A stretch of DNA of 6,362 nt from IMG/VR virus record IMGVR_UViG_2700989510_000024; one strand, written 5' to 3'. This DNA comes from a virus. Its lineage: Duplodnaviria; Heunggongvirae; Uroviricota; Caudoviricetes. Of the stretch, positions 5,319-5,596 are shown in pieces. Both the position numbers and the translations under genes were made by a program. Each line of letters begins with the position of its first letter. Position 1 is the stretch's first letter. The notes under the pieces are model-generated. The model saw nothing but the letters and a program-made list of their open reading frames with translations. It did not search any database and was not told the DNA's origin.

Positions 5319-5518
5319 TTAACAAGTTATTATCATGGGGTTTGTGGCTGTTAACCTGCAGTGAGGCGACAATCGTGTATTTATAAAAACTTCCCCTTTT
5401 CACTCCCCGCTGTTTCTTCTGCTATTTCCTTTATGTTTGCATGCAGCAACATCTGCCATACCTTTGCAGAAAAATCAGAGCATTTAGTGCCGAAGGTTGG
5501 TTTATTGATGCTTTTTGT

Positions 5519-5576
5519 TTCATTCATTGCAATTATCGATGGTATTATTTCAATTTGTGCAATAATTGCAATTATT
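5519..5576 (+). promoter_or_regulatory. candidate promoter/operator with palindrome and direct repeats
   Basis: Perfect 13-bp palindrome TGCAATAATTGCA (5558-5570). Direct repeat TTGCAATTAT at 5527-5536 and 5566-5575. Possible promoter TTCATT (5519-5524), 18-nt spacer, TATTAT (5543-5548). Sits just upstream of the ORF starting at 5597. Confidence 0.35.
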
Positions 5577-5596
5577 GTCATTCAGAAGGGATCATC

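Follow-up and report, generated by a model that had tools for sequence, protein, structure and literature searches.

Introduction

Ribbon-helix-helix (RHH) proteins typically regulate their own expression through arrays of short repeats. Among the phage satellites, a control region comparable to the one treated here is the promoter of SaPI operon I, the LexA-controlled packaging operon of the staphylococcal phage-inducible chromosomal islands, or PICIs (Ubeda et al., 2007, as cited in PMC6092414). For the Gram-negative PICIs, the literature covers AlpA control, Rpp proteins and cos sites, and PerC/RgdR cross-talk (PMC6092414, PMC6739421, PMC11773190, PMC3378721), while the switching-on of the genes that lie downstream of the replication module, those for redirecting packaging, interfering with the helper and carrying anti-phage functions, is largely undescribed beyond AlpA. 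Here we consider a 6,362-nucleotide stretch of DNA from IMG/VR record IMGVR_UViG_2700989510_000024 (Caudoviricetes), hereafter the window, which by its gene content is a fragment of an enterobacterial PICI, and within it the spacer that precedes a small gene for a 55-aa RHH-like protein. The last 86 bp of this spacer (5511-5596) are very probably a cis-regulatory promoter-operator region, built around two copies of a 15-bp palindromic site. In the literature searched on Gram-negative PICIs, neither this module nor LexA/SOS control of their operons is described; it is a feature of a familiar kind, although the module as such seems to be previously unreported.

Paired 15-bp sites upstream of a small first gene

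The conserved unit is a 15-bp imperfect palindrome, TTKCR-N5-YGMAA, which occurs in two copies ahead of the operon's small first gene. The comparison drew on 14 loci with relatives of the 55-aa protein (one genome per species), to which were added loci from Citrobacter and E. coli W26 and the characterized PICIs EcCICFT073 (L024) and EcCIMP1 (L025), for a non-redundant set of 21 loci. At least 10 genera are represented: Escherichia, Citrobacter, Klebsiella, Pantoea, Tatumella, Rouxiella, Lonsdalea, Rahnella, Chimaeribacter, and Erwinia or Serratia metagenome-assembled genomes. The start-to-start spacing of the two sites, designated O_D (distal) and O_P (proximal), is exactly 30 bp in every one of the 21, including EcCICFT073 and EcCIMP1, whose downstream genes differ. 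As 30 bp amounts to three helical turns, the two sites lie on the same face of the DNA. The pattern stands upstream of the 55-aa gene homologue in 24/24 loci and almost nowhere else in ~210 kb, with no further occurrence in the complete homologous element, L001 (24.9 kb). From O_P to the start codon the distance is 42-58 nt in 20 of the 21 loci and 84 nt in EcCICFT073.

In the alignment of these loci the invariant columns are the half-sites, with spacers and linkers varying freely. Among the E. coli-clade alleles the 278-nt spacer has 18 variable positions, none of which damages a half-site. Allelic changes within O_D and O_P are confined to the central N5 or to the 15-bp linker, and the sole in-site change, G5557T in L004, improves a third, overlapping copy of the site (O3), which it turns into a perfect TTGCA-N5-TGCAA. 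O3 is a lineage-specific feature, found in part of the E. coli lineage only and absent from L002 (E. coli IMT5155), from L026 and L030 (Citrobacter) and from the distant loci. An earlier note on this DNA, made from its letters alone, had proposed that the repeats of the spacer are plausible operator sites, and half-sites that remain nearly invariant over 21 loci while their surroundings drift argue in favor of that proposal.

The repeats on which the earlier note relied fare unequally. Its palindrome TGCAATAATTGCA is found at 5558-5570 both by direct reading and with tools, and constitutes the core of O3; it does not hold up as a conserved unit, being missing from IMT5155, from both Citrobacter loci (L026, L030) and from all more distant relatives. 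The direct repeat TTGCAATTAT does occur twice, at 5527-5536 and 5566-5575, as part of a full shared repeat of 11 nt, ATTGCAATTAT. The palindrome TGCATGCA exists, although at 5438-5445 rather than 5437-5444; in Citrobacter europaeus its place is taken by TGCATGTA, and the match is one of chance, an 8-nt palindrome of this sort appearing in 2452 of 3000 shuffles. The longest perfect palindrome of the spacer is one of 18 nt, CAATAATTGCAATTATTG (5560-5577), which arises from the tandem 9-mers TGCAATAAT and TGCAATTAT.

All such chance tests employed 3000 dinucleotide-preserving shuffles. For the 278-nt spacer as a whole, 7 shuffles produced a palindrome of 18 nt or longer, 107 a direct repeat of 11 nt or longer, and 50 seven or more TGCAA/TTGCA words; for 5511-5596 alone, the corresponding counts were 5, 44 and 2. 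The description of the entire interval 5319-5596 as repeat-rich thus has to be narrowed, since the tests by subregion find 5319-5510, two thirds of it, the same as shuffled sequence: the repeats are real and non-random, yet restricted to the last 86 bp. The related word TGCAATWAT has four matches in L001, against 1.07 expected over the entire locus, and all four fall within 48 bp of the region. Nature has also supplied a deletion here, for in L008 and L009 exactly the 39 bp between the 11-nt repeat copies are missing. The same two loci carry a CAA>TAA nonsense change at codon 20 of the 55-aa gene (positions 2700-2910), possibly a joint decay of operator and regulator, in one lineage only.

Table 1. 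Features of the 6,362-nt window, with positions counted from its first letter.
Feature	Position	Strand	Remarks
DUF4222 protein	365-655	+	Window gene
P4-type primase	652-2457	+	Window gene
Iteron-rich stretch	2460-2820		Follows the primase gene
ProQ/FinO	2827-3369	+	Window gene
PerC	3366-3653	+	Window gene
380-aa lipoprotein	3788-4930	+	Window gene; cargo
107-aa membrane protein	4995-5318	+	Window gene; cargo
Spacer under study	5319-5596		278 nt
Non-coding DNA downstream of the 107-aa membrane-protein gene	5319-5468		Repeats at shuffle level
GTG open reading frame, 79 codons	5361-5600	+	Nested 30-codon ATG frame from 5509; judged not a gene
66-codon open reading frame	5381-5581	-	PGAP "hypothetical protein" in RefSeq (e.g. 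WP_024170960.1); judged spurious
Decayed PerC 3' end and terminator zone	5469-5510	+	Right-hand cargo cassette junction
O_D, distal operator-like site	5518-5532	+	TTTCATTCATTGCAA; exact pattern match, equivalent position in related loci
11-nt repeat, copy 1	5526-5536	+	Right part of O_D; left endpoint of the natural 39-bp deletion
O_P, proximal operator-like site	5548-5562	+	TTTCAATTTGTGCAA; exactly 30 bp downstream of O_D
O3, third, lineage-specific copy	5557-5571	+	GTGCAATAATTGCAA; one mismatch to the pattern; overlaps O_P
Candidate extended -10, TGcAATAAT	5558-5566	+	Right half of O_P; putative, read from sequence
11-nt repeat, copy 2	5565-5575	+	Right part of O3; right endpoint of the natural 39-bp deletion
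Candidate -10, TATTGT	5573-5578	+	1 nt after O3; mimics the TGCAA-T-TATAAT geometry seen elsewhere
Shine-Dalgarno, AAGGG	5586-5590	+	6 nt before the ATG at 5597
55-aa RHH-like protein	5597-5764	+	First gene of the operon; candidate autoregulator
90-aa open reading frame	5761-6033	+	
HTH/TerS-like gene	from 6133	+	First 35 codons only; 175 aa in L001

Promoter context and SOS-like boxes in the relatives

The sites of the related loci sit in a recurring arrangement, the order being terminator, O_D, a 15-nt linker, O_P, 1 nt, a -10 element, a CTGT..CAG box, a Shine-Dalgarno motif and the ATG. TATAAT or TACAAT stands 1 nt after O_P in 14 of the 21 loci, in company with the SOS-box-like CTGT..CAG motif, the upstream terminator is present in relatives including EcCIMP1, and a GGAGG- or AAGGG-type motif occupies the equivalent place in all related loci. 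In the window the canonical TATAAT of the relatives is absent, and two candidate -10 elements may be proposed instead (Table 1). With either candidate the proximal sites would overlap the core promoter and would therefore take the usual position of a repressor's operator. Short phased sites over a core promoter are what an RHH-type operator-promoter presents, and the window conforms to this, its -10 being only a candidate.

The LexA consensus of E. coli is TACTG(TA)5CAGTA. A canonical CTG-N10-CAG box is found in five of the loci, namely L011 (Tatumella), L018 (Lonsdalea) and L020 (Pantoea), in each just upstream of position 3001, together with EcCICFT073, where the box is ACTGGATGAACATCCAGT / AACTGGATGAACATCCAGTT and the promoter lies at L024 334-462, and EcCIMP1, where it is AACTGTTGTTTTATACAGTT with the promoter on the minus strand of L025 at 11828-11960. 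In six other loci the CTGT..CAG spacing is one base short. By pattern match the canonical boxes would be SOS-type, which suggests LexA control of the distal operon in these relatives. The window shows no SOS-type box, neither TACTGTATATNNNNACAGTA at up to three mismatches nor CTG-N9/10-CAG upstream of 5597, and its promoter does not qualify as LexA-regulated.

The 55-aa protein as candidate autorepressor

Who, then, might bind the sites? The structural model of the 55-aa protein has an RHH fold, with TraM, PutA, omega, NikR, ParD and CopG as its closest structural matches, so that the candidate regulator has the fold which an RHH-controlled operator-promoter calls for. A homologue of its gene adjoins the site pair in 20/21 loci, whatever genes follow. 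Searches by sequence contribute little: tblastn against 50,697 phage records gave no match for the 55-aa protein, a PDB sequence search with its family profile returned nothing, and Pfam and PHROG scans of both the 55-aa and the 90-aa proteins were uninformative. The earlier note had offered the products of the genes at 5597 and 6133 as possible binders. The predicted fold and the gene linkage make the first a credible candidate. The second has no particular tie to the sites: of the related loci screened with tblastn, only five (L002, L010 and L013 among them) yielded a homologue; open reading frames (ORFs) of 174-180 aa occupy the position of the 6133 gene in L026 and L029-L031.

Autorepression is the model that we prefer, because RHH proteins so commonly act in this manner on short repeat arrays. 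Region 5511-5596 would then be the non-coding promoter-operator of the operon that follows PerC in the PICI, a dimeric or tetrameric regulator would bind the 15-bp sites cooperatively, and the bound regulator would occlude RNA polymerase at the candidate -10. The binder would most likely be the 55-aa RHH protein, acting upon its own promoter, and the window's lineage would have lost the SOS-box-like motif and the canonical TATAAT that many relatives keep. Taken as a whole, we regard this account as reasonably probable; the assignment of the RHH protein as the binder is more tentative, and falls a little short of an even chance.

Several observations weigh against the autorepressor account. The sites are also present in EcCICFT073, where the first gene encodes a 68-aa protein without detectable homology to the 55-aa protein (hhalign probability 0.5%); a common factor of host, helper or PICI origin, PerC for example, would account for this at least as well as an autoregulator. 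A simple sigma-70 scan found no plus-strand promoter in the spacer, only minus-strand hexamers created by the palindromes. Promoter activity in the window's lineage is uncertain because the TATAAT of the relatives is missing, and, since the PerC terminator upstream has been destroyed, the region could instead be transcribed by polymerase reading through from the cargo genes. A hydrophobic ORF of 28-33 codons (TTG or ATG start, ATGA overlap) is, moreover, kept in the window, L003, L004, L026 and L030, a persistence limited to the cargo-bearing E. coli and Citrobacter subclade.

Alternative readings of the sites

The strongest competitor accepts that the sites are truly cis-regulatory and assigns them to a different binder, be it PerC, a helper-phage protein or a host factor, perhaps in activation or anti-silencing of a weak, AT-rich promoter. 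The two sites before the non-homologous first gene of EcCICFT073 speak for it, as do the 29% G+C content of the region and the want of a recognizable -35 element, which would fit activator dependence. PerC itself is encoded no more than 3 kb upstream in 12 of 16 related loci (tblastn); Pch/PerC relieves H-NS silencing (PMC4764244), and the PerC-like protein of EcCIMP1 alters LEE1 expression (PMC11773190). Against PerC in particular, none could be detected within 3 kb in L011-L014 and L017, all of which retain the sites, and in EcCIMP1 PerC is ~8 kb away whereas the RHH gene adjoins the sites. Against any such binder, O_P lies over the -10 and spacer in the position typical of a repressor, and the pattern recurs nowhere else in the 24.9-kb element. 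On balance we judge a non-RHH binder unlikely, though well worth bearing in mind.

Other known binders were considered and set aside. AlpA is unlikely, the region upstream of alpA having a different palindrome, ACCCTNAGGGT, and lambda CII-type TTGC-N6-TTGC, sigma-54, marbox, KdgR/Cra-type and LysR-type T-N11-A sites all misfit in spacing or orientation (compared by eye). As a separate observation, the stretch upstream of alpA in L001 (3880-4030) contains several ACCCT(G/T)AGGGT palindromes, some of them within longer direct repeats (CACCCTTAGGGTAGATTTCCT twice), which are candidate sites for AlpA or for a helper-encoded inducer.

A second reading makes the plus strand coding, with a hydrophobic membrane peptide, either from 5509-5600 or over the full 79 codons, coupled to the 5597 gene through an ATGA overlap and resembling a type I toxin or a leader. 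The earlier note had described this GTG-initiated frame at 5361-5600, and its 79 codons, hydrophobic tail and ATGA overlap are all as reported; that note had also held the frame more likely to be non-coding, which the comparisons bear out. Compared across the relatives, the half-sites are kept and both spacer ORFs fail. Among the E. coli alleles the plus-strand frame has 5 synonymous and 11 non-synonymous changes, and although 5 of 16 might be counted in its favor, 23% would be synonymous at random. It has a nonsense change at codon 3 in E. ruysiae, +1, +2 and -4 indels in Citrobacter, and no usable start in L002 or in L028 (W26); in the Pantoea, Lonsdalea, Klebsiella and Tatumella loci the frame contains stops and no starts, with the DNA motif retained. 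In the 30-codon tail, a hand count between the window and Citrobacter finds no fewer than 12 non-synonymous changes (L>P, I>N, D>F and G>V among them) to ~2 synonymous ones, and so reveals no constraint on the amino acids. The frame shifts relative to the downstream gene from locus to locus (+1, +2, 0), the 39-bp deletion takes out 13 of its codons, its Shine-Dalgarno is poorly placed at 11-14 nt upstream, and a promoter at O_P would begin transcription downstream of its start. What looks protein-like has a simpler origin: the V/I-S-x-x-A that recurs after 10 codons comes from the half-sites GTTTCA and TGCA being read in a 30-bp register, and the hydrophobicity from DNA that is T-rich and ATT-rich. 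Neither conservation of start and frame nor purifying selection, as a small hydrophobic protein or type I toxin gene would display, is seen, Pfam and PHROG scans of both spacer ORFs gave no match, and a membrane peptide is accordingly a very improbable explanation.

More improbable still is a packaging site, in which R sites of cosB or pac type would be recognized by the TerS-like 6133 protein, after the manner of lambda, where cosB lies upstream of Nu1. The 175-aa protein does have an N-terminal HTH_17 (helix-turn-helix) match and a PHROG small-terminase match, and in PICIs of this kind packaging is redirected by Rpp proteins, which are TerS-like and recognize a cosB specific to the PICI (PMC6739421); a PDB sequence search with the 175-aa protein returned nothing. 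The lambda-type cosN GGGCGGCGACCT has nothing above chance in the window or L001, which thus give no sign of a cos site, most related loci keep the sites with no TerS-like homologue detected within 3 kb downstream, and the -10, Shine-Dalgarno and start codon follow the sites in a fixed register. In EcCICFT073 the two cosN are found downstream of the paired sites at distances of 2.1 and 2.9 kb, and because the nearer is thus at least 2.1 kb away we have dropped the idea. The region likewise shows no sign of a known structured RNA: an Rfam scan of the entire window at E values up to 1 gave no match, and the spacer is predicted to fold no better than shuffled sequence on either strand (z-scores 0.07 and 0.06). 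Pfam scans of the genes downstream of the RHH gene in the Pantoea and Lonsdalea loci also found nothing.

Hardly credible at all is the minus-strand ORF at 5381-5581 as a real gene, for although it is annotated in L001 and L003-L007 and promoter-like hexamers do occur on that strand, its changes are 13 non-synonymous to 2 synonymous, L002 has lost its start codon (as read from the sequence, where no such ORF is listed), a -4 indel in Citrobacter shifts its frame and rewrites its C-terminal half, the predicted minus-strand promoters lie downstream of its start codon, it matches no family, and the gene calls of L026 have none in the spacer. Judged by these comparisons of sequence, neither spacer ORF is a gene, and a "hypothetical protein" of 66 aa that recurs in RefSeq is thereby corrected.

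The upstream two thirds of the spacer and the cargo cassette

The stretch 5319-5468 occurs only together with the lipoprotein and membrane-protein cargo cassette, and no signal of a repeat, an RNA or a promoter was found in it; its counterpart in Citrobacter europaeus has indels of +1 and +2, and C. braakii has lost much of it. The adjoining 5469-5510, which forms the right-hand junction of the cassette, has ~75% identity, by eye, to the stop codon and terminator of PerC in L002 (GGCCGGGATTTTTCCCGGCC) as well as to window 3633-3690. In L002, a cargo-free element from APEC IMT5155, a strong terminator comes after PerC, and the 55-aa gene begins 110 bp later; homology of the window to this element begins at ~5469 and is clear from 5511. 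The terminator hairpin of the cargo-free elements is destroyed in the window at 5469-5510, and a scan of 5319-5596 found no terminator-like site. Positions 5319-5510 are thus cargo-associated filler followed by a decayed PerC 3' end.

The cargo cassette itself (3788-5318) has an imperfect copy of the PerC 3' end on either side, at 3633-3690 and 5469-5515. Its 380-aa lipoprotein, which has no Pfam family, recurs in Tatumella and Pantoea at 53-62% identity (L011 1670-2842; L023 1674-2810), in each case between PerC or primase and the RHH promoter. The 107-aa membrane protein has a homologue in Rouxiella (L013 945-1265) and has been lost in C. braakii (L030) save for its last ~40 nt. The region upstream of the RHH promoter is a second cargo hotspot of these islands.

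At the far end of the island, the distal cargo that follows the TerS-like gene varies among an AAA ATPase with DUF4435 (a PARIS-like pair), SIR2-family proteins, a DNA methyltransferase and DUF4747, and so forms a defence hotspot (L001 14377-16333; L004 from 4383; L028 from 4111).

The host element and its ends

On the strength of its genes the window is a fragment of an enterobacterial PICI, an E. coli phage satellite. The complete element L001 has the order int, AlpA, antA/B, Icd-like, DUF4222, primase, ProQ, PerC and cargo, followed by the 55-aa, 90-aa and 175-aa genes and then the defence cargo (AAA ATPase and DUF4435). It displays what is expected of an enterobacterial PICI, namely an integrase, AlpA, a primase with an iteron origin and co-oriented genes at ~15-20 kb, without structural or lysis genes.

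Window positions 128-6236 recur at 99.8-100% identity in ~80 complete E. coli genomes, where they form part of such a satellite. Position 1-127 is the end of an IS3-family element and 6237-6362 the end of the IS66-like ISEc8, and it is because of these insertion sequences (IS) at both ends that the island is truncated and that only the first 35 codons of the TerS-like gene remain. IS junctions bracketing 128-6236 occur in none of the complete E. coli genomes of the collection.

Certain other features of the fragment deserve mention. The AT-rich stretch at 2460-2820 bears many GGTAGACAG-like iterons in both orientations, where the replication origin of a PICI would be expected. PerC is intact in the window (95 aa; 3366-3653), while the L001 copy (10466-10754) is annotated as a frameshifted pseudogene, the two being one G apart, at window position 3550. 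The DUF4222 protein (365-655) has an RPGD motif and is probably a relative of RgdR, a 99-aa regulator of LEE and motility said to be encoded by all analyzed E. coli PICIs (PMC3378721, PMC6092414).

Implications and comparison with known systems

Taken alone, the window yields an ordinary result, a promoter-operator region in an IS-truncated satellite fragment. The wider proposal, doubtful but of greater consequence, is of a portable cassette that recurs across enterobacterial PICIs whose late or accessory genes are otherwise very different, and comprises terminator, two operators 30 bp apart, -10, LexA box and RHH autorepressor gene. If this is correct, the cassette would place the distal operon, whose cargo serves packaging, interference or defence, under the joint control of the SOS response and of a repressor encoded by the island, and would be the Gram-negative counterpart of the LexA-controlled SaPI operon I; the lineage of the window would then be a natural variant, uncoupled from SOS, in which a third operator has replaced the LexA box and TATAAT. 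A conserved cis module with a dedicated RHH gene offers a concrete handle on the control of these genes, as well as a landmark for annotating satellites and their cargo hotspots.

Three comparisons place the module. The autoregulated RHH units, such as omega of pSM19035, Arc/Mnt of P22, CopG and the TraM sbm sites of F-like plasmids, are alike in having a small RHH gene directly downstream of phased short sites over a core promoter. The 55-aa protein differs from these in having no sequence similarity to any Pfam RHH family, and the site here is a 15-bp palindrome twice at 30 bp, as opposed to heptads or a 21-bp operator; binding at the present locus is predicted only. SaPI operon I, too, is alike, as a control region that heads a late or accessory operon of a satellite, and EcCIMP1, EcCICFT073 and the Lonsdalea, Pantoea and Tatumella elements carry CTG-N10-CAG after the -10, whereas the window differs in having no SOS-type box.

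The nearest relatives are EcCICFT073, where the module follows PerC, and EcCIMP1, where it follows the primase gene (PMC6092414, PMC6739421, PMC11773190). They belong to the same satellite class and likewise have paired sites, spaced by 30 bp, before a small first gene. What follows that gene differs from the window in both, with capsid, decoration and Rpp genes in EcCICFT073 and ejection-protein genes in EcCIMP1. Relative to the pair, the window has the additional lipoprotein and membrane-protein cargo and a third site, lacks the TATAAT and SOS box, and has been truncated by insertion sequences; the first gene of EcCIMP1 is, for all that, a clear homologue of the one encoding the 55-aa protein.

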